DNA of 64,000 nucleotides, taken from Escherichia coli (GTDB taxonomy: Bacteria > Pseudomonadota > Gammaproteobacteria > Enterobacterales > Enterobacteriaceae). Positions 1-14,403 of this stretch are shown here, piece by piece. Each line of letters begins with the position of its first letter. The first letter of the stretch is position 1. The notes beneath the pieces were generated by a model, which was given only the letters and a program-made list of their open reading frames with translations, made no database searches and was not told the DNA's origin. The translations under genes were made by a program, and so were the position numbers. Location: the NCBI RefSeq assembly GCF_003790525.1, contig NZ_CP033635.1. One strand, given 5' to 3'.

Positions 1-45
1 TTTACCTTTAGCGATATCAGCGGTAGTAATCGGTGTAGAGGTCAT
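1..45 (-). CDS. 5' end of an unidentified gene that continues beyond the window edge (N-terminus MTSTPITTADIAKGK)
   Basis: Reverse complement of 1..60 gives GAGGAA Shine-Dalgarno followed by ATG ACC TCT ACA CCG ATT ACT ACC GCT GAT ATC GCT AAA GGT AAA; divergent from the AraC-family gene; product not recognised. Confidence 0.4.
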   Translation of the reverse strand, partial: MTSTPITTADIAKGK

Positions 46-270
46 AGATATTCCTCGTGAATAGGGAGCAATTTTTAGTTTTATTGCAATGACATGATTA
101 ATTCTGCCGTGAACGGGAATATCAACAAGGCGAGAAAAGAGTAAAAAAAGGTGACGATTCCGACCTGAATTTAAAAGTGTGAATTGGATCAGGTGAAATT
201 AATGTTTTTGATTAATAATCAAAAGGTAATGTGTTTAATCATTAATGAATAAGCGGAAAATTACATATCA

Positions 271-1086
271 ATGCTCGAATTATCCATGACGTTACCGATT
301 AAAGTGCAAAATGGTGGATTATTTATTTCCCGTGGCGTAGGGAGGCATCCGGCAAGGCGGCTGGAGTCATGGGAAATTATCTTTGTCGAAAAAGGTCGAT
401 TAGCGATTCAGGAAGAAGAGCGGATATTTCTGGTCGATGCGGGAGAGAGTTTATTACTCTGGCCGAACCGACAGCATGTTGGGGTAGAGGATTTTCCCGC
501 CGATCTCAAATTTTACTGGCTGCATTTTGAGGTTAAAGCGCCGGATAGCGACCCGCGCTGGCTCACTCATCTTAGCGTGCCGCAACAAACTAAGGTTGCC
601 GATCCGCAGGTGCTGGTGGCCTTGTTTCGCCAGTTCTTAAGCGAACAGGAAAAGCATCAACGCACTCCGGCGCTGGAGTTTATTGTGCTGCTGATTTTGC
701 AGCAGCTCACCCGTGACGCGCGTCTTGATGAACAGGCCGATGGTGCAGGCACCACCCTTGCCTGGAAAGCGCAGAAACTGATTCGCACGCAATATCACCG
801 CCCGCTTTCCACGGCGCTTTTAGCCCGCGAGCTGTACTGCAATGCCGATTATCTTGGGCGCGTCTATCGGCGGGTGTTTCATCTGACGTTAACAGAAGCA
901 ATCCACCGCCAGCGAGTGCGCGAAGCCGAAAAGCTGTTAATTAGCGAAGCGCGATCGCTCACGGAAGTGGCGGCGTTGTGCGGGTTTAATGACGTCGGCT
1001 ATTTCCGGCAGATTTTTCGCAAGCACACCGGTTTAACGCCAGCAGCGTGGAAGCGGCGTTACAGCAAGGAACATATCAATTCGTAG
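271..1086 (+). CDS. AraC/XylS-family transcriptional regulator (N-terminal cupin-like sensing domain, C-terminal HTH)
   Basis: 271 aa ORF; C-terminal region with typical AraC HTH signature (…YLGRVYRRVFHLTLTEAIHRQRVREAEKLL…GFNDVGYFRQIFRKHTG); not recognised as a named K-12 gene at this position. Confidence 0.8.
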   Translation: MLELSMTLPIKVQNGGLFISRGVGRHPARRLESWEIIFVEKGRLAIQEEERIFLVDAGESLLLWPNRQHVGVEDFPADLKFYWLHFEVKAPDSDPRWLTHLSVPQQTKVADPQVLVALFRQFLSEQEKHQRTPALEFIVLLILQQLTRDARLDEQADGAGTTLAWKAQKLIRTQYHRPLSTALLARELYCNADYLGRVYRRVFHLTLTEAIHRQRVREAEKLLISEARSLTEVAALCGFNDVGYFRQIFRKHTGLTPAAWKRRYSKEHINS

Positions 1087-1117
1087 TGCCGGGGCGATGA
1101 AGCCCCGGTCTGAGAGA

Positions 1118-1813
1118 TTACTGCCCGTAATAGGCATTGGCCCCATGTTTACGCAGGTAGTGCTTATCCAGCAGTTCGTTTTGCATCGCAGGGAGCAGCG
1201 GTGCAAGCTGGCGCGAGAACAGGCCCATATAGGCGCACTCTTCCAGCACCACGGCGTTATGCACCGCATCGGCGGCGTTTTTTCCCCAGGCGAACGGGCC
1301 GTGAGAATGCACCAGTACAGCCGGGATTTGTGCCGGGTTCAACCCACGTTCTTCGAAGGTTTTAATGATCACTTCGCCGGTCTGGTATTCATACTCGCCG
1401 TTGATCTCCTCTGCGGTCATCTGTCGCGTGCAGGGGATGGCACCATAGAAGTAATCAGCGTGCGTGGTGCCCCAGGCGGGGAGATCCAGCCCGGCCTGCG
1501 ACCAGATGGTGGCGTGGCGCGAGTGGGTATGCACAATACCGCCAATTTCGGCATAGCGACGGTAAAGCGCCAGATGCGTTGGCGTGTCGGACGAGGGCTT
1601 TTTGCTGCCTTCCACCACTTTACCGCTGGCTATCTCAACCACCACCATATCGTCGGCGGTCATCACGTCGTACTCGACGCCGGAAGGTTTGATTACCATC
1701 CATTGCCGCGTTTCGTCTACCGCGCTGACATTGCCCCAGGTGAACGTCACCAGATGGTGAGCGGGAAGCGCCAGATTCGCCGCCAGCACGTCGGCTTTTA
1801 GTTGCTCTAACAT
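1118..1813 (-). CDS. sgbE: L-ribulose-5-phosphate 4-epimerase (class II aldolase family)
   Basis: 231 aa ORF, class II aldolase/epimerase; last gene of the yia-sgb operon by context. Confidence 0.9.
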
Positions 1814-2667
1814 ATAAATCCGGCCTCCTGCATACGCGCTTCAATCCAGCGCCGCGCCTGAATAATCTCCAGCACCGGCTCTTTGGCTTTTTCGGTCCAC
1901 ATCTCAATCAGAAATGATCCGCGATAGTTCAGTTCATGCAGCGTTTTGAAGATGCCAACGAAATCGACGCAGCCTTCGCCAAACGGCACATCACGGAACT
2001 GTCCGGGGCTTTGCTCGGTCACTGGCTGGGTGTCTTTCAGGTGGATCGCGGCGATACGGTCAATGCCCAGTTTCAGTTCGGCGGGAACATCATTGCCCCA
2101 GGCGCTGAGGTTGCCGACGTCCGGGTAGACGGTGAACCACGGCGAGGCGAGCATCTCGTCCCATTTTTTCCATTTGCTGATGGAGTTCATAAACGCGGTA
2201 TCCATAATCTCCACCGCCAGCATTACTTGTGATGCCGCCGCCTGTTCGACTGCCCACGCCAGCCCTTCAGCAAAACGTTGTTGGGTGCCTTCGTCGTGGT
2301 CTTCGTAATAGACGTCATAACCTGCCAGCTGGATGGTGCGAATGCCGAGATCGCGCGCCAGGCGAATCGCTTTACTCATGATTTCCCGCGCCCGTTCGCG
2401 CACTGCCTCGTCCCGGCTGCCAAAGGGAAAACGACGATGGGCAGACAGGCACATTGACGGAATGGCAACACCCGTTTCGATCATCGCAGTGACCAGCGAA
2501 GCACGTTGTGCGGCGCTCCAGTCAAGACGTGAGAGCCGTTCGTCGGTTTCATCCACCGACATTTCGACAAAATCAAAGCCACAGCTTTTTGCCAGCACCA
2601 GCCGCTCCGGCCAGGAGAGATCTTTCGCCAGCGCTTTTTCATAAATCCCTAACGGATGATTACGCAC
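1807..2667 (-). CDS. sgbU: L-xylulose-5-phosphate 3-epimerase
   Basis: ORF track 1807..2757; likely GTG start at 2667 giving 286 aa beginning (V)[14 protein letters not shown]; overlaps the sgbH stop. Confidence 0.85.
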
Positions 2668-3322
2668 GCGCACCTCCCCAGATGGCATCAATTTGTGCAT
2701 GGAAATCGCCAGCCACCTGCGCCGGATTTGCTGCGCCTGCCAGCGCCCGCCCGGCAATAAAGGCTTTCACGCGGATATCTTTAAACAGCGGCAGGTCAGC
2801 AGGGGTAATCCCGCCGGTAATGGAAAGCTCAAGGCCGATATCGGAAAGCGCCTTCATGCGTGCCAGATCGGCCTCGCCCCACTGTTGCCCGCTGGCCTGC
2901 GCGTCGCGACCGCGATGATAAATGGCCTGCCGCACGCCAAGACGATGCCAGTCGCGGGCGTCGTCCAGCGTCCAGTTACCGAACAGCTCTATCTGAATTT
3001 CACCACCGCAGCGTTGCGCCATGGCGTGGCCTTTTTCCACCGTCGCGAGCGGCGCAGCGCAGATGATGGTCATCCAGTTGGCACCCGCGCCAAACGCCTG
3101 TTGTGCGAGCGTTTCACCCGCGTCGGCGACCTTCCAGTCAGCAACGATGATTTTATCCGGGCACTGTTCGCGCAAGGCTTTCACCGCGCCAAGCCCTTCG
3201 TTTAAACAGAGAATGGTGCCCGCTTCGACGATATCGACGCTGCCTTTTAACAGCATCACGTCGCGCTGTGCGTCTTCAAGTGATGAGTGGTCGAGGGCCA
3301 GTTGCAGAAGTGGTCGGCTCAT
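2660..3322 (-). CDS. sgbH: 3-keto-L-gulonate-6-phosphate decarboxylase
   Basis: 220 aa, OMP-decarboxylase-like; operon position. Confidence 0.9.
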
Positions 3323-4815
3323 AATGTGTGCTCCTTGATGCGGGCGTGAAAGCCCTCAAGTGCGGCAATGAGATGCTGATAGCGTTGGTATTTTTGTTGG
3401 TAAAGCTGATGTGCGGTCATATCCGGCAGCAGGGTGCGTACCGGGTGCTGTAAATCACGTTGGGCTTCGCTGAAATCGCGATAAACTCCGGTGCCGACGC
3501 GGGCGGCAAGTGCCGCACCAAAGCAGCCGGTTTCTTCCACCTGCGGCAGCTCGATACGCAGACCGCTGACGTCCGCCAGCATTTGCATCCAGACATCGGA
3601 ATGCGCCGGGCCGCCAGTGACGCGCAGGGTGTGCACATCAGTAAAACGTTCGCGCATCCGGTTGAGATGGGTCATATGGCTGAACACCACGCCTTCATAA
3701 ATGGCCTGCAACAGGTGTGCGCGGGTATGAATGGCCTGCATCCCGTAGAAACCGCTGGTCATCTCCAATCCGGCGTTGCTGCCGTACAGGAACGGCAGGA
3801 AAAAGAGATCGCCCCCGGCCTTCGGCAAGCTGGCAACGGCCTGGTTAATCTCATCAAACGAGATTTCTCCCCACTGTGCGGTAAACCATTCGAGGTTGCC
3901 GGAAGAGGTGGGGCTGGCTTCGTGAACGATAAATTGACCATCGTTAACGTAGCGACCATAGACATACGGATGCGCTTCACCGTCACGTAAACCACGGGTT
4001 ATGCCGCTGGTCACCGCCCAGGTGCCCATCACCGCATTGAGGGTAAATTCGTCTTCGATCCCGGCACAGAGTGCGGTGGAAACCACATCAAACAGGCCGC
4101 CGACAACGGGCGTACCCGCTTTCAGACCGGTCAGTGCGGCTGTCTGAGCGGTGATTTCCCCGCAAATTTCGGCAGATCCGACAACAGGCGGCAGGGCGTG
4201 GTTGATTTCAGCGATCCCCAGCCAGTCGGTGAGGCACGGGTCATATTCCTCAAGACTCATGTTGTAGAGGTTGGACTCGGAAATATTGCTCTCTTCGCAA
4301 CCTTTGACGCCGGTTAAACACCAGCGCAGATAGTCGTGCGTCATCATTACGCAGCCAATTTGCGCGTAGCGTTCCGGTTCGTGCTCTTTCAGCCAGCGTA
4401 ACAGCGACACCGGATGCCCGGTCCACAAGGTTTGTCGGGTCAGCGGGTAGAGTTTTTCCGGGATGCCATCTTCCTGCCAGCGACGAACGATTTCCATCGC
4501 CCGGCGGTCCGAGGACAAAATAGCATTCCCGAGCGGCTTGTCGTTTTTATCCAGCAAAAACAAGCCCTTTCCCTGTGCGGAGATACCGATACCCACTATT
4601 TGCTCCCCGCTGACACCAGAATGAGTAAGCAGGGTGCGAATGACAGCCATGCAGCATTGCCACAGTTCTGCCATATCGCGCTCTGCCCAGCCTGGCTGCG
4701 GGCTTAATGCGCACAGCGGCAGGCGCTGCACGCCTGCCTCCCGGCCTTCGCGGTCATACAGCCCGGCTTTCAGCCAGCTACCGCCACAATCTAACCCCAG
4801 CCAGTATTGCGTCAT
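3319..4815 (-). CDS. lyxK: L-xylulose kinase (FGGY carbohydrate kinase)
   Basis: 498 aa FGGY kinase; 4 bp overlap with sgbH. Confidence 0.9.
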   Translation of the reverse strand: MTQYWLGLDCGGSWLKAGLYDREGREAGVQRLPLCALSPQPGWAERDMAELWQCCMAVIRTLLTHSGVSGEQIVGIGISAQGKGLFLLDKNDKPLGNAILSSDRRAMEIVRRWQEDGIPEKLYPLTRQTLWTGHPVSLLRWLKEHEPERYAQIGCVMMTHDYLRWCLTGVKGCEESNISESNLYNMSLEEYDPCLTDWLGIAEINHALPPVVGSAEICGEITAQTAALTGLKAGTPVVGGLFDVVSTALCAGIEDEFTLNAVMGTWAVTSGITRGLRDGEAHPYVYGRYVNDGQFIVHEASPTSSGNLEWFTAQWGEISFDEINQAVASLPKAGGDLFFLPFLYGSNAGLEMTSGFYGMQAIHTRAHLLQAIYEGVVFSHMTHLNRMRERFTDVHTLRVTGGPAHSDVWMQMLADVSGLRIELPQVEETGCFGAALAARVGTGVYRDFSEAQRDLQHPVRTLLPDMTAHQLYQQKYQRYQHLIAALEGFHARIKEHTL

Positions 4816-4818
4816 GGT

Positions 4819-5805
4819 TTATTGCACCTCATCCACGGCTTTCAGCAGATCAGCTCCCTGCGGCACATCTTTAACAAACATGTCGCGAACCTGATTCCCC
4901 AGTGCGTCGCTAAAGGCTTTGCGGTCGAGATCGGTGATGACTTCCACGCCCGCTTCTTTCATGCCGTCGATGATTTTTTGCTGATCTTCGGCAACCAGTT
5001 TGCGCTGGTAGTTACCCGCTTCCTGCGCAGATGAAATTAGCGCTTGCTGGAACTCCGGGGTTAAGCCGTCAAACTTCGCTTTGTTGATCACCACCAGAAG
5101 TGGCGAATAGGCGTGGTGCGTCAGAGAAAGGTACTTCTGTACTTCATAAAATTTTGCTGACCAGACGACGTTGATCGGGTGTTCCTGAGCGTCGATAGTG
5201 CGCGTTTCCAGCCCGGTATAGACTTCGGCAAACGGCATCGGGATCGGGTTAGCGCCAAAGACTTTGAATGCTGCGATATTCATCGGACTATTGTTGGTGC
5301 GGATTTTCAGCCCTTTCAGGTCGGCGGGGGTTTTAACCGGTGCGCGCGAGTTGGTGACATCGCGCCAGCCGTTTTCCCAGTAGGCCAGTACTTTCAGTCC
5401 TTTACCTTCAAGTGAGGCTTTCAGATCATCACCGACTTTGCCGTCGAGCGTTTTATGCGCGTGAGCGGTATCGCGGAACAGGAAAGGGACATCAAGCAAG
5501 TTCATCACTGGTGATAACCCGGCAAAGTTATTCGAGCCGGACATTTCCATATCGATGGTGCCGCCACGTACGCCGCTGATCATCGCCTGCGCGTTACCGA
5601 GAGTGCTGTCCGGGAACAGTTTTAATTTCAGCTCGCCTTTGGTTCTCTCCTGCAATAAATCATTGAATTTTTTCGCCGCAATATGTTGCGAGTCGGTTTG
5701 TGAGGTTTCATAACCGAAACGTAAAGATTGCGCCGCCATTGAAGATGTACTAAATGCAGCCAGGCCAGCAATGAATAATGCGTAGGTTACAGAGCGTAAT
5801 TTCAT
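4819..5805 (-). CDS. yiaO: TRAP transporter periplasmic solute-binding protein
   Basis: 328 aa with signal peptide; DctP-type binding protein. Confidence 0.9.
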   Translation of the reverse strand: MKLRSVTYALFIAGLAAFSTSSMAAQSLRFGYETSQTDSQHIAAKKFNDLLQERTKGELKLKLFPDSTLGNAQAMISGVRGGTIDMEMSGSNNFAGLSPVMNLLDVPFLFRDTAHAHKTLDGKVGDDLKASLEGKGLKVLAYWENGWRDVTNSRAPVKTPADLKGLKIRTNNSPMNIAAFKVFGANPIPMPFAEVYTGLETRTIDAQEHPINVVWSAKFYEVQKYLSLTHHAYSPLLVVINKAKFDGLTPEFQQALISSAQEAGNYQRKLVAEDQQKIIDGMKEAGVEVITDLDRKAFSDALGNQVRDMFVKDVPQGADLLKAVDEVQ

Positions 5806-5817
5806 AATATTTTCCTT

Positions 5818-7095
5818 TTAATTAATCCATTTCAAAGGGAGGATGATGAGATCGGGAATAAAAACAAATACGACTAATAATGAATATAAAACCAGGACGT
5901 AAGGGAAAACGCCTCTGACTGCATCATCGAATTTGAGTTTTGCCACCCCTGAAATAACGTTAAGCACATTACCGATAGGCGGTGTAATTAAGCCGATTGA
6001 GCAGTTAATGATAAACATGACACCGAAATAAATCGGATCGATTCCTGCCTCTTTAACTAAAGGCATTAATACCGGAGTAAGAATTAACACCGTCGGCGTT
6101 AAATCCATGACCATGCCGACAATCAGGATAGCCAGCATAATAACGATAAACAGCAGACGCGGTGAATCGACCAACGGTTGCAGTAAATCAGAAACCATCA
6201 TCGGCAATTCAGCAATGGTAATCAGCCAGGCAGAAACTTGTGCCGAGGCCACCAGAAACATTACCACTGAGGTGGTTTTCGCCGCGCCAATGAGTACATG
6301 CCAAAGTGTGGCGAAGGTCATTTCACGGTAAATAACTGTGGCGACAAACAGCGCATAGAAAGCAGCAACGGCCCCGGCTTCGGTAGGGGTAAACAGACCG
6401 GAGCGAAACCCGCCAATAATGATGACTGGAAGAAACAGCGCCCAGATACCGGAGACAAAAGAGTGCCAGATTTCCTGCATCGTTGCTTTTTGCTGGCGGG
6501 GTAAATTAAGGCGACTGGCCTGCCACCACCAGGTAAGCATCAGCGTTGCGCCCATCATCATGCCAGGGGCAATGCCCGCCATAAACAGCTTACTGATGGA
6601 TAATCCGCTGGAAACGCCGAAAATAATAAACGGAATGGAAGGGGGAATAATTGGCGCGATAATGCCGCCAGAGGCAATCAGCCCCGCCGCCCGGTTGACC
6701 GGGTAGTTGGCGCTGCGCATCATCGGCACCAGTAGAGCGGCAACGGCGGCGGTATCCGCAACGGCAGAACCAGAAAGGCTTGCCATAATCATAGCCGCCA
6801 GCACGCCGACGTAGCCCAGCCCGCCTGGTTTATGCCCCACCAGTTTCATCGGCAGGTCAACAATGCGTTTTGACAAGCCGCCCGCATTCATGATTTCACC
6901 CGCCAGCACAAAGAACGGAATCGCCAGCAGGGAGAAGCTGTCGGCTCCGTTCACCAGCGTTTGTGCCATGATCTGGACATCAAACATGCCCAGCCAGAAC
7001 ATTAACGCCGCCCCGCACAACAACAGTGCCCAGGCAATAGGCAAACCGATAGCAATACCACCCAACAGACAGCCCAGAAAAATCAGCACAGCCAT
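5818..7095 (-). CDS. yiaN: TRAP transporter large permease (DctM-type)
   Basis: 425 aa polytopic membrane protein. Confidence 0.9.
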   Translation of the reverse strand: MAVLIFLGCLLGGIAIGLPIAWALLLCGAALMFWLGMFDVQIMAQTLVNGADSFSLLAIPFFVLAGEIMNAGGLSKRIVDLPMKLVGHKPGGLGYVGVLAAMIMASLSGSAVADTAAVAALLVPMMRSANYPVNRAAGLIASGGIIAPIIPPSIPFIIFGVSSGLSISKLFMAGIAPGMMMGATLMLTWWWQASRLNLPRQQKATMQEIWHSFVSGIWALFLPVIIIGGFRSGLFTPTEAGAVAAFYALFVATVIYREMTFATLWHVLIGAAKTTSVVMFLVASAQVSAWLITIAELPMMVSDLLQPLVDSPRLLFIVIMLAILIVGMVMDLTPTVLILTPVLMPLVKEAGIDPIYFGVMFIINCSIGLITPPIGNVLNVISGVAKLKFDDAVRGVFPYVLVLYSLLVVFVFIPDLIILPLKWIN

Positions 7096-7097
7096 GA

Positions 7098-7571
7098 TTA
7101 AGCTCCTTGCGGTGGCGACGTTAGAGAATTGCTACGCGTGATGAGTTGATATAAATGACGCAGTTCAAAGAATGCGATAACGAGGCTGGTGGGCAGACAA
7201 GCGGCATACATCAGGCCGATGGGCAAACCGAGGATCGGTGAATAATCGCTCCAGTCCTGAATTGTTTTTAGCGTTGCGCCCCAGGCCAGTGCGCCACAAA
7301 TAAATAAGATTAAGGAATGGGTAACCAGAGCGACTCGTCGCTGCCATGCGGGGGAGAGTTTCTCCACCAGAAAGGTGACCTGAACGTGGGCGTTATCCAT
7401 AAAAGCCACAATCGCGCCAATAAATGTTAACCAGACAAATAAATAACGTGACAATTCATCTACAGATAAAATGCTTGTCTGAAAACCATATCTTAAAATA
7501 ATGTTTATAAACACAATACAGGAAAGTACGGCGAGATTAATCGCCAGTATTGCTTCAAGTATTTTTTTCAT
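7098..7571 (-). CDS. yiaM: TRAP transporter small permease (DctQ-type)
   Basis: 157 aa membrane protein directly upstream of yiaN. Confidence 0.88.
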
Positions 7572-7688
7572 AGCTATTCCTTGAGGCTATGTCTGTCATA
7601 ATTAAAGTTGCATGTGCAGCAACCTAAATTATTAATATAGTTAGAGCAATAACATTACCCAGGCGTTCTGGCGTAGACGATTATTCGA

Positions 7689-8159
<471 letters not shown>

Positions 8160-8167
8160 TTATCTCC

Positions 8168-9166
8168 TTATAACGCCTGGATTTTTGCCCACACGCTGTC
8201 ATCAACGGTGATGCCGTTACGGCGGTTTTCGGCCAGCAGGGTAGTAAATTCGTGGCCGGGTAAGCGGATGGCCTGGTTTTCGTCAGCGCGTTCAGCGGTA
8301 GTAACGTAATCCATGATGCGTTGCAGCTTGGCATCGCGGGTGGGGCCGTCGATCAATTTATCCACTTCGATGGCGATAAAGATTTGCGAAACGCCGTATT
8401 CGTCGCTGTTGTCCTGGGTGACTTCGGCAACCGATGCGCCGTCGGAAAGGAGAGTGGCGATCATATCCAGCACAATCGACATGCCAGAACCTTTCCAGTA
8501 GCCCATCGGCAAAATGCGGCGATTCTTCTCGATAACGCCAGGTTCTTTGGTCAAATTGCCCTCATCATCAAAGCCACCATCGACCGGGAGCTGACGGCCT
8601 GCCAGACGGTTAACTTCTAACATGCCGTAAGAGAACATCGACATCGACATATCGACCATGGTGATTGGGGTAGAAGGAATGGCGACGATCAGCGGGTTGG
8701 TGCCGATGCGACACTCTTTTGCGCCCCACGGCGGCATTACGGCGATGGAGTTGGTCCAGCAAATGCCAATATAGCCTTTTTCCGCCGCCTGCCAGCCGTA
8801 GCTGCCGCCGCGCATCCAGTGGTTGGCATTACGTAGTGCCACCAGACCAATACCGTGATCGGCAGCCAGTTCAATGGCGCGATCCATCATCTTTTTCGCT
8901 GTCAGGTTACCGATCGAACGCTGGGCGTCCCACTGTTCAATTGCGCCGAGGCTGGTTATACGTTTGGGTTGGGCATCAGGAATGATATCGCCGTTTTCCA
9001 GTTGTTGAATGAAACGAGGGAAACGATTAACGCCGTGAGAATAAACGCCGGATTCGGTGGTGCGGGCGAACATCTCTGCACAGGCGTCAGCCGTTTCGCT
9101 GTCAACGCCGCGTGAAATTAAGACCCGATTAAAGGCTGCTTTTAACTGCTCAAATGTCACTTTCAT
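8168..9166 (-). CDS. yiaK: 2,3-diketo-L-gulonate reductase
   Basis: 332 aa; first gene of the yia operon. Confidence 0.9.
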
Positions 9167-9366
9167 CCCAGGCTTCCTTGTTTTTTTGAACGCTTTTTTG
9201 GCTTAAAATTTCAATATACGAAACTTGATTTCAAATATATCGATCACTTTTTAACAAAGCAATCTGATTGATGAATTTCAAAAAACTTAAAAATCAAGTG
9301 GTTATAAATTATCTGTCGAGATCGTGAACTACGGCACACTTTGCGCTACCATCAGGACGCGACAAA

Positions 9367-10215
9367 ATGGGGAAAGAAGTGATGGGAAAAAAAGAGAACG
9401 AGATGGCGCAGGAAAAAGAGCGTCCAGCCGGAAGCCAGAGTCTGTTTCGTGGGTTGATGCTGATTGAGATTTTGAGCAACTATCCAAACGGTTGTCCGTT
9501 GGCGCATCTTTCGGAACTGGCTGGTTTAAATAAGAGTACCGTCCATCGCTTATTGCAGGGATTACAGTCCTGCGGCTATGTGACCACCGCGCCCGCCGCA
9601 GGGAGTTACCGCCTGACCACCAAATTTATTGCCGTCGGGCAGAAGGCGCTGTCTTCGCTGAATATCATTCATATCGCCGCTCCGCATCTTGAGGCATTGA
9701 ACATCGCCACTGGTGAAACCATTAACTTCTCCAGCCGCGAAGACGATCACGCTATTTTGATTTATAAGCTGGAACCCACAACCGGGATGCTGCGAACCCG
9801 TGCCTATATAGGCCAGCATATGCCGCTCTACTGTTCCGCAATGGGCAAGATCTACATGGCGTTTGGTCACCCGGACTACGTGAAGTCATACTGGGAAAGC
9901 CATCAGCATGAGATCCAGCCGTTAACCCGCAATACCATTACCGAGCTGCCCGCGATGTTCGACGAACTGGCGCACATTCGTGAAAGCGGAGCGGCGATGG
10001 ACAGAGAAGAAAACGAACTCGGCGTCTCCTGTATTGCTGTTCCGGTGTTTGATATTCATGGGCGGGTGCCGTACGCCGTGTCGATTTCGCTTTCGACATC
10101 ACGTCTGAAACAGGTGGGGGAGAAAAATCTCCTGAAACCACTGCGTGAAACCGCGCAGGCTATTTCTAATGAACTGGGATTTACTGTCAGGGACGACCAG
10201 GGCGCGATCACATAA
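9367..10215 (+). CDS. yiaJ: IclR-family transcriptional repressor of the yiaK-sgbE operon
   Basis: 282 aa IclR-type (N-terminal HTH, C-terminal effector domain); divergent from yiaK. Confidence 0.9.
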   Translation: MGKEVMGKKENEMAQEKERPAGSQSLFRGLMLIEILSNYPNGCPLAHLSELAGLNKSTVHRLLQGLQSCGYVTTAPAAGSYRLTTKFIAVGQKALSSLNIIHIAAPHLEALNIATGETINFSSREDDHAILIYKLEPTTGMLRTRAYIGQHMPLYCSAMGKIYMAFGHPDYVKSYWESHQHEIQPLTRNTITELPAMFDELAHIRESGAAMDREENELGVSCIAVPVFDIHGRVPYAVSISLSTSRLKQVGEKNLLKPLRETAQAISNELGFTVRDDQGAIT

Positions 10216-10316
10216 CGCTTTGGACAAGTGCCAAAACTTTAACATTTCCTTCGTTGGATCAAAGCAGTAGAGACGCGCTCTCTGGCACTCTGCTGTTTTA
10301 GTGCAAAGGAGTGATC

Positions 10317-10790
10317 ATGAACCGGTTTATTATTGCGGATGCGACGAAATGTATCGGTTGCCGTACCTGTGAAGTGGCTTGCGCAGTGTCGCATCAGGAG
10401 AATCAGGATTGCGCTGCGTTGTCACCAGACGAGTTTATTTCCCGTATTCGTGTCATTAAAGACCACAGCTGGACCACGGCAGTAGCCTGTCATCAGTGTG
10501 AAGATGCACCGTGCGCGAATGTCTGCCCTGTTGACGCGATAAGCCGTGAACATGGGCATATTTTCGTTGAACAATCACGTTGCATTGGCTGTAAAAGCTG
10601 TATGCTGGCTTGCCCGTTTGGTGCGATGGAGGTCGTTTCTTCGCGCAAAAAGGCGAGGGCGATTAAGTGCGATCTGTGCTGGCATCGGGCGACGGGACCG
10701 GCCTGTGTTGAAGCCTGCCCGACAAAGGCGTTGCAGTGCATGGATGTCGAGAAAGTGCAGCGGCATCGGCTACGACAGCAGTCTGTTTGA
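10317..10790 (+). CDS. ysaA: 4Fe-4S ferredoxin-type protein
   Basis: ATG at 10317 gives 157 aa; multiple CxxCxxCxxxCP motifs. Confidence 0.88.
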   Translation: MNRFIIADATKCIGCRTCEVACAVSHQENQDCAALSPDEFISRIRVIKDHSWTTAVACHQCEDAPCANVCPVDAISREHGHIFVEQSRCIGCKSCMLACPFGAMEVVSSRKKARAIKCDLCWHRATGPACVEACPTKALQCMDVEKVQRHRLRQQSV

Positions 10791-10837
10791 AACGTTTTTC
10801 CGGCGTTTTTTAACGCAGGAATAGTGCGCTTTGTTTA

Positions 10838-10945
10838 TGCCGGATGCGGCTTAAACGCCTTATCCGGCCTACAAATTCTTCCAAATTCAATATATTGCAG
10901 AAATGATGTAGGCCTGATAAGCGTAGCGCATCAGGCAATTTTTAA
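10838..10945. repeat. REP/BIME palindromic elements between convergent ysaA and avtA
   Basis: tgccggatgcggc…gccttatccggcctaca and inverted tgtaggcctgataagcg…gcatcaggca REP-type sequences. Confidence 0.75.
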
Positions 10946-12195
10946 TGACTTTCAGCCCAGGCGCGTTCAATCTCTTCCGCCAGAATCTTCACCCCCGCCT
11001 CAATTTTATCCGGCTCCGGCACGTAGTTCATGCGCATACATTGATGTGTATGTGGCCACGGTTTATCCAGCCCTGGGAAGAAGTTGTGCCCCGGCACCAT
11101 CAGCACGCCCCGTGCTTTCAGGCGCTGGTAGAGCTGCTCGGTCGTAATTGGCAAATCCTTAAACCATAGCCAGAGGAAAATGGCTCCTTCCGGTTTATGA
11201 ATCAGGCAGCGATCTTCCGGTAAATAGCGGCGAATGATGGCGATAGTTTCCTGAACACGCTGGTAATAAAACGGTTTGATAACCGTTTCAGACAGGCGCA
11301 GCAGATCGTTACGCTTAATCATTTCACACATTATCGCCGGACCAATACCGCCAGGCGCCAGGCTGATAATGCCGTTCATGTTGGTGATTGCGGTGATGAT
11401 TTTTTCATTGGCGATGATAATGCCGCAGCGCGAACCCGGTAGTCCCAGCTTGGAAAGACTCATGCACAGTACAATATTCGGATTCCACAGCGGGCGCGCT
11501 TCGCTGAAGATGATACCCGGGAACGGGACGCCATAAGCGTTATCAATCACCAGCGGAATGCCGTGTTGATTCGCCAGCGCGTCAAGCTTCAGCAACTCTT
11601 CGTCAGTAATCACATTGCCTGTTGGATTCGTCGGCCGGGAGACGCAAATCATCCCGGTTTCTTCGCCAATATGCAGATGCTCAAAATCGACGTGGTATTT
11701 AAACTGGCCTTCCGGCAGCAGTTCAATATTCGGACGCGCAGAGACAAACAGATCTTCTTCCAGTCCGGCGTCAGCGTAGCCAATATATTCCGGTGCCAGC
11801 GGAAACAGCACTTTTTTGATCCGACCATCGGCACGGCGTCCGGCAAACAGATTAAATAAGTAGAAAAACGCGCTCTGGCTGCCGTTTGTTAGTGCAATAT
11901 TCTGTGGTTCGATATCCCAACCCAACTTCTCGCGCAGCATTCCGGCAAGCAGTGTGAGTAGCTCCGTTTTCCCCTGTGGACCGTCGTAATTGCACAGTGC
12001 ATCAGTCGCTTTGCCACTTTCCAGCATGTCGGTCAGTAGCGTCTGGAAGTAGTCCTGCATTTCCGGGATCTGCGCTGGATTACCGCCGCCGAGCATAATC
12101 GCGCCAGGCGTGCGTAAACCGTCGTTCAGATCTTCCATCAGCAGCGTAATGCCGGAGTGGCGGGTAAATTTGTCACCAAAAAGGGAGAATGTCAT
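10942..12195 (-). CDS. avtA: valine-pyruvate aminotransferase (transaminase C)
   Basis: ATG (complement) at 12193..12195 gives 417 aa starting MTFSLFGDKF; ORF track over-extends the N-terminus. Confidence 0.9.
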   Translation of the reverse strand: MTFSLFGDKFTRHSGITLLMEDLNDGLRTPGAIMLGGGNPAQIPEMQDYFQTLLTDMLESGKATDALCNYDGPQGKTELLTLLAGMLREKLGWDIEPQNIALTNGSQSAFFYLFNLFAGRRADGRIKKVLFPLAPEYIGYADAGLEEDLFVSARPNIELLPEGQFKYHVDFEHLHIGEETGMICVSRPTNPTGNVITDEELLKLDALANQHGIPLVIDNAYGVPFPGIIFSEARPLWNPNIVLCMSLSKLGLPGSRCGIIIANEKIITAITNMNGIISLAPGGIGPAIMCEMIKRNDLLRLSETVIKPFYYQRVQETIAIIRRYLPEDRCLIHKPEGAIFLWLWFKDLPITTEQLYQRLKARGVLMVPGHNFFPGLDKPWPHTHQCMRMNYVPEPDKIEAGVKILAEEIERAWAESH

Positions 12196-12372
12196 AGCGG
12201 GATATCTGTCGAACTCTGTAGCAAGGAAGGTAACAATAACGCTACATTTGCTGGGGTGCAAATCGCTCTGTTGAAGAGGGAGCGGTGCTTTATCCTGCAA
12301 CGCTGATTAGAGCTGACATTTTATCCTGGTTGGCGGCTTCCCGAGGTACTGACGAACGGGAAGCCGGAAAAG

Positions 12373-14403
12373 TCACTGTTGCCCAGCCCAGATGACCAGC
12401 ACTTTATCGTCGCCATGCTCACGAACAAAGCCGTAGCCCTGCTTCATCGAAAGTGTCGTTTGTTTGCCCTCGCCAATTGCGGGATGGCGGGCGCGGAACT
12501 GGCTGATTTTCTGCCAGTGCGCGACGCTGGCGGCAGATTTACCGCTAACATCCTGCCAGTTCATATCCGAACGCGTACCTTGCAGCGGATCCGAACCGGT
12601 GGGGCCGAACGGACGCGAGGATTCATCACCATAAAAGATTTGTACCGCGCCTGGCGCTAATAACAATAACTCTGCTGCTTTATTACCACCTTCGCGGAAC
12701 AGGCGGGTATCATGCGATGAGAGGTAGCTCAACACGTTGAAATCCTGCAATTTCTCCGCCATTTGCTGCCAGGTCGTATCCATCTGCGCCAGACAATCGA
12801 CTGCTTTCGCCGCCTGCTCCTGATAATCGAAATTGATCATCGCATCGAAGCCGTGGCGATAGTAGTCACTTTGCATCACGCCGTGGCCCCAGGCTTCACC
12901 GGTCATCCAGAAAGGTTTGTCATCTAATGCTTTGTCGGAGTTAGCTTTTTTCCATTCGCGAAGCGCGGCGCTGGCTTCGGTTTTCAGTTGCTGCCAGGCG
13001 GGCAACTCAACATGTTTGGCGGTGTCGACCCGAAAACCATCAATCCCATAGTCGCGAACCCACTGACTTAACCAGTGGGTTAAGTAATCGCGAGGGGTAA
13101 AGCCGTCGATGACTTTAGCGTGGGTATCCGTTTTGTTTTTATAGAACACCGGCAGACCAGAAGCGGTCGTTGATTCGGTTTTGATATCCGGCAAAAAGGC
13201 CAGCGACATAGTGAGATCGTCGAATCCAGGATTGTCGTAATCGCCGATATCGGTTCTGATCCAGTTTTTTCCCCACCATTTATCCCAGCCTGTTTTGTCG
13301 CTGAAATTAATGTAATCGTTAAAGCTATGCCAGGTTTGCCCGGCGGCAGGTTTCCAGTCGCTCCAGCGTTCACCCAGCGTTTTTTTCACTTCGTCACCAG
13401 AAAGATATAACGCGCCAAACTGAAACTCCTGCATATCCGCCAGTGTGGCGTAACCGGTGTGGTTCATCACGACATCAAAGAGAATACGAATACCGCGCTG
13501 ATGCGCGCTATCAACCAGCGTCCGTAGATCGGCTTCGCGGCCCATATTGGCATCAAGATTCGTCCAGTCCTGTGTGTAATAACCGTGGTAGGCATAATGC
13601 GGGAAATCGCCTTTTGTACCGCCGCCGACCCAGCCGTGAATTTGCTCAAATGGGGCACTTATCCATAAAGCATTGACGCCCAGCTGCTGGAGGTAATCCA
13701 GTTTGTTGGTCAGGCCGCGTAAATCGCCGCCGTGAAAAGTGCCAATTTCTGCCATACCGTCTTTATGACGTCCGTAACTCTGGTCATTACTGGGATCGCC
13801 GTTTTCGAAACGATCTGTCAGCACAAAGTAAACCGTGGCGTTATGCCAGTCGAAAGGGGCAGAGGCGTCAGTTTCTGCCCGTTCCAGCAGGAGTAAACCG
13901 TTGCTGGTGGCAGCGGGTTGTAACGTTATTTGACCGTTCTTCACTATCGCAATTTGCTGGCTGTAATAATCCCGGACGGCGGCTCCCTCCGGAAAAGTGG
14001 CGCTGACATCCAGTGTGAGCGGTAATCCATCCCATTTCGGGCATTCACGGACCAGGCTTGCTACCGGTTCGACGGCGTTCTGGATGGAAATCATCAATGT
14101 TGGTGTACCGGAGCGGGTGTCTAGTTGCAGCGTATATTCGCCGTCCCTGAACAATCGCCATTGAGGCGGCGTGTTGCTACAAGGTTGCAGGGAAAGCATC
14201 TGATTGAGTTTTATCGCATCCGCAGGCTGCCAGCACTGTTGGTCAAAATTTAGCGTTAGTGGACGCGTACCTTTGGGCAACTGTGCGTGGCTGACAAATG
14301 TTCCCGTCCCCTGTTCGCTAAAGGCGGGAAACCCCGGAGAAGTCCAGCTGGCGGCAACGGCGAAGCCAGGAAGGAGTGTCAGAAAACAGGCGGCGAGTTT
14401 CAT
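12373..14403 (-). CDS. malS: periplasmic alpha-amylase
   Basis: 676 aa with signal peptide; GH13 alpha-amylase. Confidence 0.92.
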   Translation of the reverse strand: MKLAACFLTLLPGFAVAASWTSPGFPAFSEQGTGTFVSHAQLPKGTRPLTLNFDQQCWQPADAIKLNQMLSLQPCSNTPPQWRLFRDGEYTLQLDTRSGTPTLMISIQNAVEPVASLVRECPKWDGLPLTLDVSATFPEGAAVRDYYSQQIAIVKNGQITLQPAATSNGLLLLERAETDASAPFDWHNATVYFVLTDRFENGDPSNDQSYGRHKDGMAEIGTFHGGDLRGLTNKLDYLQQLGVNALWISAPFEQIHGWVGGGTKGDFPHYAYHGYYTQDWTNLDANMGREADLRTLVDSAHQRGIRILFDVVMNHTGYATLADMQEFQFGALYLSGDEVKKTLGERWSDWKPAAGQTWHSFNDYINFSDKTGWDKWWGKNWIRTDIGDYDNPGFDDLTMSLAFLPDIKTESTTASGLPVFYKNKTDTHAKVIDGFTPRDYLTHWLSQWVRDYGIDGFRVDTAKHVELPAWQQLKTEASAALREWKKANSDKALDDKPFWMTGEAWGHGVMQSDYYRHGFDAMINFDYQEQAAKAVDCLAQMDTTWQQMAEKLQDFNVLSYLSSHDTRLFREGGNKAAELLLLAPGAVQIFYGDESSRPFGPTGSDPLQGTRSDMNWQDVSGKSAASVAHWQKISQFRARHPAIGEGKQTTLSMKQGYGFVREHGDDKVLVIWAGQQ

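Follow-up and report, generated by a model that had tools for sequence, protein, structure and literature searches.

The yiaKLMNO-lyxK-sgbHUE (yiaK-S) operon of Escherichia coli K-12 MG1655 and the divergent gene yiaJ (b3574-b3583) are the closest described counterparts of the locus considered here, which occupies positions 1118-10215 of a 64,000-nucleotide stretch of E. coli DNA (contig NZ_CP033635.1; hereafter the window). Work on K-12 with genomic SELEX (gSELEX) and gel shifts singled out the yiaK operon as YiaJ's principal target, and the protein received the new name PlaR (PMC6958661). The box to which PlaR binds overlaps the yiaK promoter, whose position was mapped by experiment, and both ascorbate and galacturonate dissociate the protein from the box (PMC6958661). 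Chromatin immunoprecipitation with exonuclease treatment (ChIP-exo) placed two YiaJ peaks between yiaJ and yiaK in the same organism, and deletion of yiaJ brought strong up-regulation of the operon, faster use of L-ascorbate, and microaerobic growth on L-ascorbate (PMC6237786). We are confident that the window carries the orthologue of this operon together with its divergent yiaJ (plaR).

Other described systems resemble the locus less closely. The Klebsiella yiaK-L-X1-X2-P-Q-R-S operon has the locus, yiaJ, yiaK, yiaL, lyxK, and sgbHUE in common with the window, but a major facilitator superfamily (MFS) gene, yiaX2, takes the place of yiaMNO, the genes for a tripartite ATP-independent periplasmic (TRAP) transporter, and a gene for a DUF4862 protein, by its position yiaX1, is present. 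That operon is required for aerobic L-ascorbate use, according to the citation of Campos 2008 in PMC4324149. The ulaABCDEF (sga) operon encodes UlaD, UlaE, and UlaF, paralogues of SgbH, SgbU, and SgbE that carry out the same three reactions; it differs in its ascorbate uptake by a phosphotransferase system, its UlaG lactonase, and its control by UlaR, and it is without a TRAP transporter, a YiaK reductase, or a LyxK kinase (established knowledge; PMC4324149). Nearer to the window are loci of Salmonella enterica, E. marmotae, Pseudocitrobacter, and B2-type E. coli, including sequence type 131 (ST131), which share its malS-avtA-ysaA-yiaJ locus (where the flanks are in view), its enzymes, and its TRAP architecture, but contain an extra DUF4862 gene and encode YiaM and YiaN proteins that are 15-27% different in sequence from those of the window. 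MG1655 and the window agree in all ten genes, in how these are ordered and oriented, in gene lengths and junctions, in the 200- and 117-base pair (bp) spacer lengths, and in the flanking ysaA-avtA-malS genes; among the differences, K-12 retains only the ysaC and ysaD pseudogene remnants where the window has an intact AraC-family gene and an MFS gene. A preliminary description of this DNA had called the operon a known system, and the gene-for-gene collinearity with K-12 bears that out.

Gene content and agreement with K-12

Over positions 1-12000, the window matches the E. coli SMS-3-5 chromosome (NC_010498.1, 3965970-3977969, reverse strand) with 100% identity. Other complete genomes, several of them independent, are likewise 100% identical over this interval, and an assembly error that hides a frameshift is therefore unlikely. 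The RefSeq annotation of NC_010498.1 and a mechanical list of open reading frames (ORFs) concur on ten genes, none of which is flagged as a pseudogene, and both reproduce exactly the span of 1118-10215 given in the preliminary description. The nine genes of the operon occupy 1118-9166 and are read from the minus strand, as listed here with the spacers and yiaJ:

sgbE, 1118-1813, minus strand: L-ribulose-5-phosphate 4-epimerase, a paralogue of AraD and UlaF
sgbU, 1807-2667, minus strand: L-xylulose-5-phosphate/L-ribulose-5-phosphate 3-epimerase, with a GTG start
sgbH, 2660-3322, minus strand: decarboxylase of 3-keto-L-gulonate-6-phosphate (KGPDC)
lyxK, 3319-4815, minus strand: L-xylulose/3-keto-L-gulonate kinase of the FGGY family
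yiaO, 4819-5805, minus strand: TRAP periplasmic solute-binding subunit, DctP type
yiaN, 5818-7095, minus strand: TRAP large membrane subunit, DctM type
yiaM, 7098-7571, minus strand: TRAP small membrane subunit, DctQ type
yiaL-yiaM spacer, 7572-7688: 117 bp, the sole sizeable gap within the operon
yiaL, 7689-8156, minus strand: DUF386 (YhcH/YjgK/YiaL) protein
yiaK, 8168-9166, minus strand: 2,3-diketo-L-gulonate reductase (3-dehydro-L-gulonate 2-dehydrogenase)
yiaK-yiaJ spacer, 9167-9366: 200 bp, divergent regulatory region
yiaJ (plaR), 9367-10215, plus strand: IclR-family repressor gene, divergent from the operon

The genes are closely packed. Adjacent reading frames overlap by 7 nucleotides at sgbE/sgbU, 8 at sgbU/sgbH, and 4 at sgbH/lyxK, and they are separated by 3 nucleotides at lyxK/yiaO, 12 at yiaO/yiaN, 2 at yiaN/yiaM, 117 at yiaM/yiaL, and 11 at yiaL/yiaK. 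The four junctions that had earlier been singled out as tight or overlapping (sgbU/sgbH, sgbH/lyxK, lyxK/yiaO, and yiaN/yiaM) are thus two overlaps and two very short gaps. Since seven of the eight junctions are overlaps or gaps of 2-12 nucleotides, translational coupling is suggested. A Shine-Dalgarno-like purine-rich stretch (AGGA or GGAG) lies 5′ of the start codon in most of the genes, yiaJ being an exception.

Some annotation in the region calls for care. Names assigned by the Prokaryotic Genome Annotation Pipeline and RefSeq are those of paralogue families, 'ulaD' for sgbH and 'araD' for sgbE, and such labels could mislead automated pathway inference; by position and by comparison with K-12, the two genes are sgbH and sgbE. 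The longest ORF that contains sgbU (1807-2757, minus strand) begins at a TTG 30 codons further upstream. We favor the start at 2667 over the TTG at 2757 because K-12 sgbU is annotated from the GTG and the TIGR00542 profile aligns from residue 1-2. An ORF of 234 amino acids on the plus strand (1097-1801) runs antisense to nearly all of sgbE. Both this ORF and the extended form of sgbU look like artefacts of mechanical ORF calling.

We compared all ten genes, gene by gene, with the MG1655 region. No gene departs from K-12 in length, reading frame, or start codon, sgbU beginning with GTG in both, and alignment with K-12 revealed no frameshift and no internal stop in any of the ten; this was the comparison that the preliminary description had named as capable of overturning its statement that all nine operon genes are intact, and the statement stands. 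The ten proteins together differ from those of K-12 by 39 amino-acid substitutions. YiaM is identical in the two strains, YiaJ has a single difference (L278Q, leaving 281 of 282 residues the same), YiaK and YiaN have 2 each, SgbH and SgbE 4 each, YiaO 5, YiaL 6, SgbU 7, and LyxK 8 (490 of 498 residues identical). Only yiaK has a different stop codon, TAA here and TGA in K-12. Window positions 983-12000 form a single collinear block with K-12 at 97.0% identity, within which the spacers are unchanged in length and carry 6 substitutions in the 200 bp between yiaK and yiaJ and 3 in the 117 bp between yiaL and yiaM. The ratio of nonsynonymous to synonymous substitution rates (dN/dS) ranges from 0.00 to 0.16 in comparison with K-12, with yiaL at 0.16, and the same range is obtained with a much more divergent E. 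coli allele. Values of this size indicate that the genes are under purifying selection.

These observations bear on the possibility that the operon is a decaying, silent relic, truly cryptic and merely intact in appearance. Such a view can draw on the history of the operon, which was long called cryptic, and on its distribution. Some match to the 9.1-kb region occurs in 5424 of the 5426 complete E. coli genomes, and at least 80% of the region is matched in 4817; most or all of the operon has been lost from the remainder, about 11%, while about 69% of complete genomes have the nine genes and about 19% have ten. In O157:H7 (strain SS17, comparison locus L010, 5184-6141), a deletion extends from sgbE through most of yiaJ, so that only a 141-bp remnant of the 3′ end of yiaJ survives, adjoining the AraC-family gene, and an IS3-family transposase is annotated within the matched region of at least one genome (H22). 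A relic would not, however, be expected to consist of ten genes free of frameshifts and stops, to hold its low dN/dS even between alleles whose synonymous divergence (dS) exceeds 1, or to keep its synteny in Salmonella, E. albertii, E. fergusonii, E. marmotae, and Klebsiella. Nor would the loss of yiaJ from K-12 be expected to derepress the operon and alter growth on ascorbate (PMC6237786). The signal of selection largely refutes the idea of a relic, and we regard it as very improbable.

The word cryptic, which the preliminary description also applied to the pathway, is dated rather than wrong. It stems from work of the 1990s on L-lyxose and L-xylulose; in the current view the operon is a route, repressed by PlaR, for using 2,3-diketo-L-gulonate and, under aerobic conditions, L-ascorbate, and is not simply cryptic.

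Predicted pathway and its control

All ten products contain the Pfam domains expected of them, and the enzymes are readily placed in families. YiaK matches the NCBIfam equivalog NF009750 with 671 bits (cutoff 316) as well as Pfam Ldh_2, and it matches the sequences of the crystal structures 1nxu and 1s20, both entered in the PDB as 'yiaK', at E=1e-224. SgbH scores 445.7 bits against NF009831 (cutoff 294; Pfam OMPdecase), SgbU 520 bits against TIGR00542 (cutoff 272; Pfam AP_endonuc_2), and SgbE 509.7 bits against NF009002 (cutoff 386; Pfam Aldolase_II). LyxK has the FGGY_N and FGGY_C domains of Pfam but exceeds the cutoff of no NCBIfam equivalog (the XylB model gives 256 against a cutoff of 380), and its name and substrate specificity therefore rest on orthology with K-12. 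YiaL matches TIGR00022 with 219 bits (cutoff 45.5) and Pfam DUF386, and has YhcH and HI0227 as relatives in the PDB. In the 282-residue YiaJ protein, HTH_IclR (PF09339, residues 25-74) is followed by IclR_C (PF01614, residues 92-268), and no NCBIfam model was passed; the earlier identification of a divergent IclR-family repressor is correct. By our tally, seven products lie above an equivalog or enzyme-specific NCBIfam cutoff, and YiaO and YiaL match broad subfamily models only.

The transporter that had been named in the preliminary description is represented by all three of the families expected, DctP, DctQ, and DctM. YiaO matches TIGR00787 with 370 bits (cutoff 175) and Pfam DctP at E=2e-108, has many DctP-family relatives in the PDB, and begins with an N-terminus (MKLRSVTYALFIAGLAAFSTSSMA, followed by AQ) that by eye resembles a signal peptide. 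YiaM matches the equivalog NF007374 with 329.6 bits (cutoff 260) and Pfam DctQ, and four hydrophobic segments are apparent in it from its hydrophobic 19-mers. YiaN matches the equivalog NF011634 with 916 bits (cutoff 800) and Pfam DctM, along the whole length of the model, at E=2e-138; only nine segments stood out at the threshold of a crude hydropathy scan, where proteins of the DctM type have about 12 transmembrane segments. Annotation, NCBIfam, and Pfam show no ABC ATPase domain in any product of the nine operon genes. By the features compared here (subunit families, hydrophobic segments, a signal-like N-terminus, and no ABC ATPase), YiaMNO is a predicted TRAP transporter. To our knowledge YiaMNO is the sole TRAP system of K-12, a point on which a literature search was indecisive, and the earlier remark that E. 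coli has few TRAP transporters, this being one, is broadly correct.

The scheme that follows carries K-12 work over by orthology, and for the window we infer expression, substrates, and regulation alike. YiaMNO would import 2,3-diketo-L-gulonate, a breakdown product of oxidized ascorbate, with YiaO binding it in the periplasm, YiaM and YiaN serving as the membrane subunits, and an ion gradient rather than ATP driving uptake. YiaK would reduce the substrate to 3-keto-L-gulonate, which LyxK, a kinase that should also accept L-xylulose, would phosphorylate. Decarboxylation by SgbH would yield L-xylulose-5-phosphate, and epimerization by SgbU and SgbE would convert this to D-xylulose-5-phosphate for the pentose phosphate pathway. 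The enzymatic route from YiaK through LyxK, SgbH, SgbU, and SgbE to D-xylulose-5-phosphate was reportedly described by Yew and Gerlt in 2002, and it follows from the family assignments taken together with established knowledge.

A different account would make the catabolism of rare pentoses, L-xylulose and L-lyxose, the main role of the operon, with YiaMNO importing L-xylulose instead of 2,3-diketo-L-gulonate derived from ascorbate. LyxK is an L-xylulose kinase that is activated in L-lyxose-utilizing mutants, and L-xylulose was reported as a YiaMNO substrate by Plantinga et al. 2004, as that work is cited in PMC4324149 and PMC6958661. However, a pentose route would leave the keto-gulonate reductase YiaK and SgbH, the decarboxylase of 3-keto-L-gulonate-6-phosphate, superfluous, and ascorbate is itself an effector of PlaR. 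We consider a primary role in pentose catabolism unlikely.

The 200-bp spacer contains a PlaR-box-like palindrome, ATTTGAAATCAAGTTTCGTAT, at 9216-9236 (9236-9216 in operon orientation). Of the 15 positions specified in the PlaR box as printed, ATnTGAAACnnnGTTCAnTT (PMC6958661), it agrees at 11, and of the 16 in a symmetrized variant that is our own reading of the box (GTTTCA for GTTCA), it agrees at 13. Its core half-sites are the same as those of K-12, with one substitution near the edge of the box, and we conclude that a putative PlaR operator is kept in the divergent promoter region. Catabolite control has been described for the K-12 operon, and a CRP-like site, TGTGCCGTAGTTCACG, found at 9323-9338 (9338-9323 in operon orientation) is identical in K-12. 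PlaR bound to the palindromic box over the yiaK promoter would keep the operon off, and L-ascorbate or alpha-D-galacturonate would release it, with the CRP-like site suggesting an additional layer of catabolite control. The nine genes would then be transcribed as a single unit.

Several points weigh against this picture. A scan of 900-10400 for consensus sigma-70 promoters returned 8 matches where 8.5±2.6 were expected, none of them in the spacer, so that the yiaK promoter was missed; a scan of the same interval for consensus terminators returned 15 matches where 11.4±3.5 were expected, again at the level of chance. With counts of this kind we claim no internal promoter or terminator, and the placement of the yiaK promoter rests on the K-12 literature. 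The biochemical role of YiaL is unproven, and the scheme gives it no proven step. The physiological substrate has been debated, YiaMNO having been linked first to L-xylulose and later to 2,3-diketo-L-gulonate (PMC4324149). Finally, the nine-gene form lacks a gene, that for the DUF4862 protein, which most other enterobacteria have kept, and the K-12-type pathway may be a trimmed version. Nothing we have found contradicts the identification of the operon.

Nine-gene and ten-gene forms

In 1056 of the 5426 complete E. coli genomes, ST131 included, the operon has a tenth gene, encoding the DUF4862 protein, between yiaL and yiaM. About a fifth of E. coli genomes match the window in two pieces at ~91% identity, and these have the ten-gene form. 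The same position is occupied by the DUF4862 gene in Salmonella enterica, E. marmotae, and Pseudocitrobacter, and in Klebsiella the gene likewise follows yiaL. K-12, E. albertii, and E. fergusonii have nine genes, as the window does, and the spacers of the latter two differ from that of the window at few positions. Measured against K-12, the operon of the window was rightly called complete; measured against the ten-gene version of other enterobacteria and about 19% of E. coli, it was not.

We compared the two forms using one representative per lineage; the intervals containing the DUF4862 gene were 7948-9003 of comparison locus L003, 7001-7933 of L004, 7001-7921 of L005, and 4984-5922 of L009. 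The 117-bp spacer of the window lies exactly at the DUF4862 position. Homology to every ten-gene locus breaks at two points, 7708 (within yiaL, 19 nucleotides from its 3′ end) and 7590-7593, and for the ~114 bp between them the ten-gene loci have no detectable counterpart. We considered whether the spacer might be the scar of a DUF4862 deletion and rejected the idea: at a blastn word size of 7 only chance-level matches were obtained (E≥0.89), and no scar is recognizable. An Rfam scan of 1-12500 in evalue mode found nothing within the operon or the spacer, and the predicted fold of the 117-nucleotide spacer RNA (z = -1.27, with 28 of 200 shuffles as stable) does not support a structured element.

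The divergence between the two forms is concentrated beside this spacer. Compared with the ten-gene E. coli allele, YiaM is 72.6% and YiaN 85.2% identical, while the remaining operon products are 96-99% identical except for YiaL (92.9%), which spans the left breakpoint. Nucleotide identity to the ten-gene allele is 62-82% over 7571-5772, 88% in early yiaO, and 92-96% beyond. Across the yiaM/yiaN region (~5772-7571), dS reaches 1.6-2.4 and dN/dS is 0.05-0.08; the operon outside this region has a nucleotide identity of 92-97%. The ten-gene E. coli allele is far closer to that of E. marmotae (YiaM 95.5%, YiaN 98.4%), and when nine-gene loci of three Escherichia species are set side by side, identity is 94-98% in the block and 88-93% in the flanks. 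Segmental replacement, or horizontal spread of one form, is the most economical reading of these values.

We lean toward the view that the nine-gene form is a mosaic in which an ancestral segment, yiaX1-yiaM-yiaN, gave way to one made up of the extreme 3′ end of yiaL, the spacer, and yiaM-yiaN, a history that is compatible with the function proposed above. The presence of the DUF4862 gene after yiaL in Salmonella, E. marmotae, Klebsiella, Pseudocitrobacter, and so many E. coli genomes argues for it, as do the sharpness of the two homology breaks, at 7708 and about 7590, the divergence of YiaM and YiaN amid well-conserved neighbors, and the greater likeness of the nine-gene block than of its flanks across Escherichia species. 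The exchange could, however, have run in either direction, for the nine-gene form is also that of E. fergusonii and E. albertii, which branch outside E. coli, and the ten-gene form of B2 strains and E. marmotae could be the one that was re-acquired; the comparisons pointed to no donor. The more specific proposition, that the nine-gene operon is the derived one and that a segment from the last ~19 nucleotides of yiaL through yiaN (~7708-5772) replaced yiaX1(DUF4862)-yiaM-yiaN, with a possible change in the scope of the pathway, seems to us evenly balanced.

What the window would have lost under such a replacement can be considered from the DUF4862 protein itself, which has 306 residues in E. 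coli (gene at 8061-8981 of L003) and 306-312 residues over the ten-gene loci. The gene is probably the yiaX1 of Klebsiella, given its position after yiaL and the label 'chemotaxis protein' carried by some Klebsiella entries. The Klebsiella literature, as represented in PMC4324149, calls yiaX1 a "chemotaxis-like" protein. A search of the PDB with the DUF4862 sequence returned no match, and a literature search on the family returned almost nothing. An AlphaFold model, built on a shallow alignment of 12 sequences, is a beta/alpha barrel (predicted local distance difference test 76.8, predicted template modeling score 0.82). The best PDB matches to this model in Foldseek are L-rhamnose isomerase, xylose isomerase, and ketose 3-epimerase, with E values down to 5e-9 and template modeling scores of 0.6-0.67. 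The model suggests an enzyme resembling sugar isomerases or epimerases rather than a chemotaxis protein, which we offer as a lead and not as a result. DUF4862/YiaX1 is a candidate uncharacterized enzyme of the diketogulonate pathway.

Flanking sequence and implications

Downstream of sgbE lie, in the window, the gene for an AraC-family regulator (271-1086), which is intact, and the last part of a gene for an MFS transporter (1-45); homology to K-12 begins at position 983. In O157:H7 this downstream module contains, in addition, a gene of glycoside hydrolase family 127. In the window, a 31-bp gap separates sgbE from the convergent AraC-family gene and holds one further feature:

hairpin, 1089-1108: GC-rich, CCGGGGC-GATGAA-GCCCCGG, with a 7-bp stem

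This hairpin could be a candidate transcript-end structure shared by the two genes; it is not followed by a T-run on the operon strand and was not called in the consensus terminator scan. On the other side of the locus, the Rfam scan of 1-12500 reported families of small RNAs of the repetitive extragenic palindromic (REP) type downstream of ysaA, and otherwise only two sub-threshold matches, both in the AraC-family gene. The ysaA-avtA spacer (10833-10915) contains REP-type repeats, with ES036/CssrF scoring 45.3 against an Rfam gathering score of 37.6, a sub-threshold match to naRNA4 on the other strand, and a 49-bp inverted match in the comparison with K-12. We also considered whether the C51S difference in ysaA represents a lost Fe-S ligand, and rejected this; position 51 is serine or threonine in every relative examined, and cysteine occurs only in K-12.

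The operon is already known, and the copy in the window is ordinary; the new angle is the polymorphism between nine and ten genes, which is of modest interest. What the window adds directly is an intact copy of a textbook operon in a strain (SMS-3-5) that is environmental and multidrug-resistant, and with it a point of reference for annotating the first 10 kb. The distribution of the two forms, and the loss of the operon elsewhere, mean that what K-12 has shown about the use of ascorbate and 2,3-diketo-L-gulonate may not hold for B2 (ST131-type) or O157 strains. If the nine-gene operon did arise by replacement, its lineage would have lost a predicted TIM-barrel enzyme resembling xylose isomerase and gained TRAP membrane subunits that are 15-27% different. 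The only TRAP-linked pathway of E. coli would then exist, among its lineages, in two versions that differ in function and may differ in the range of substrates.

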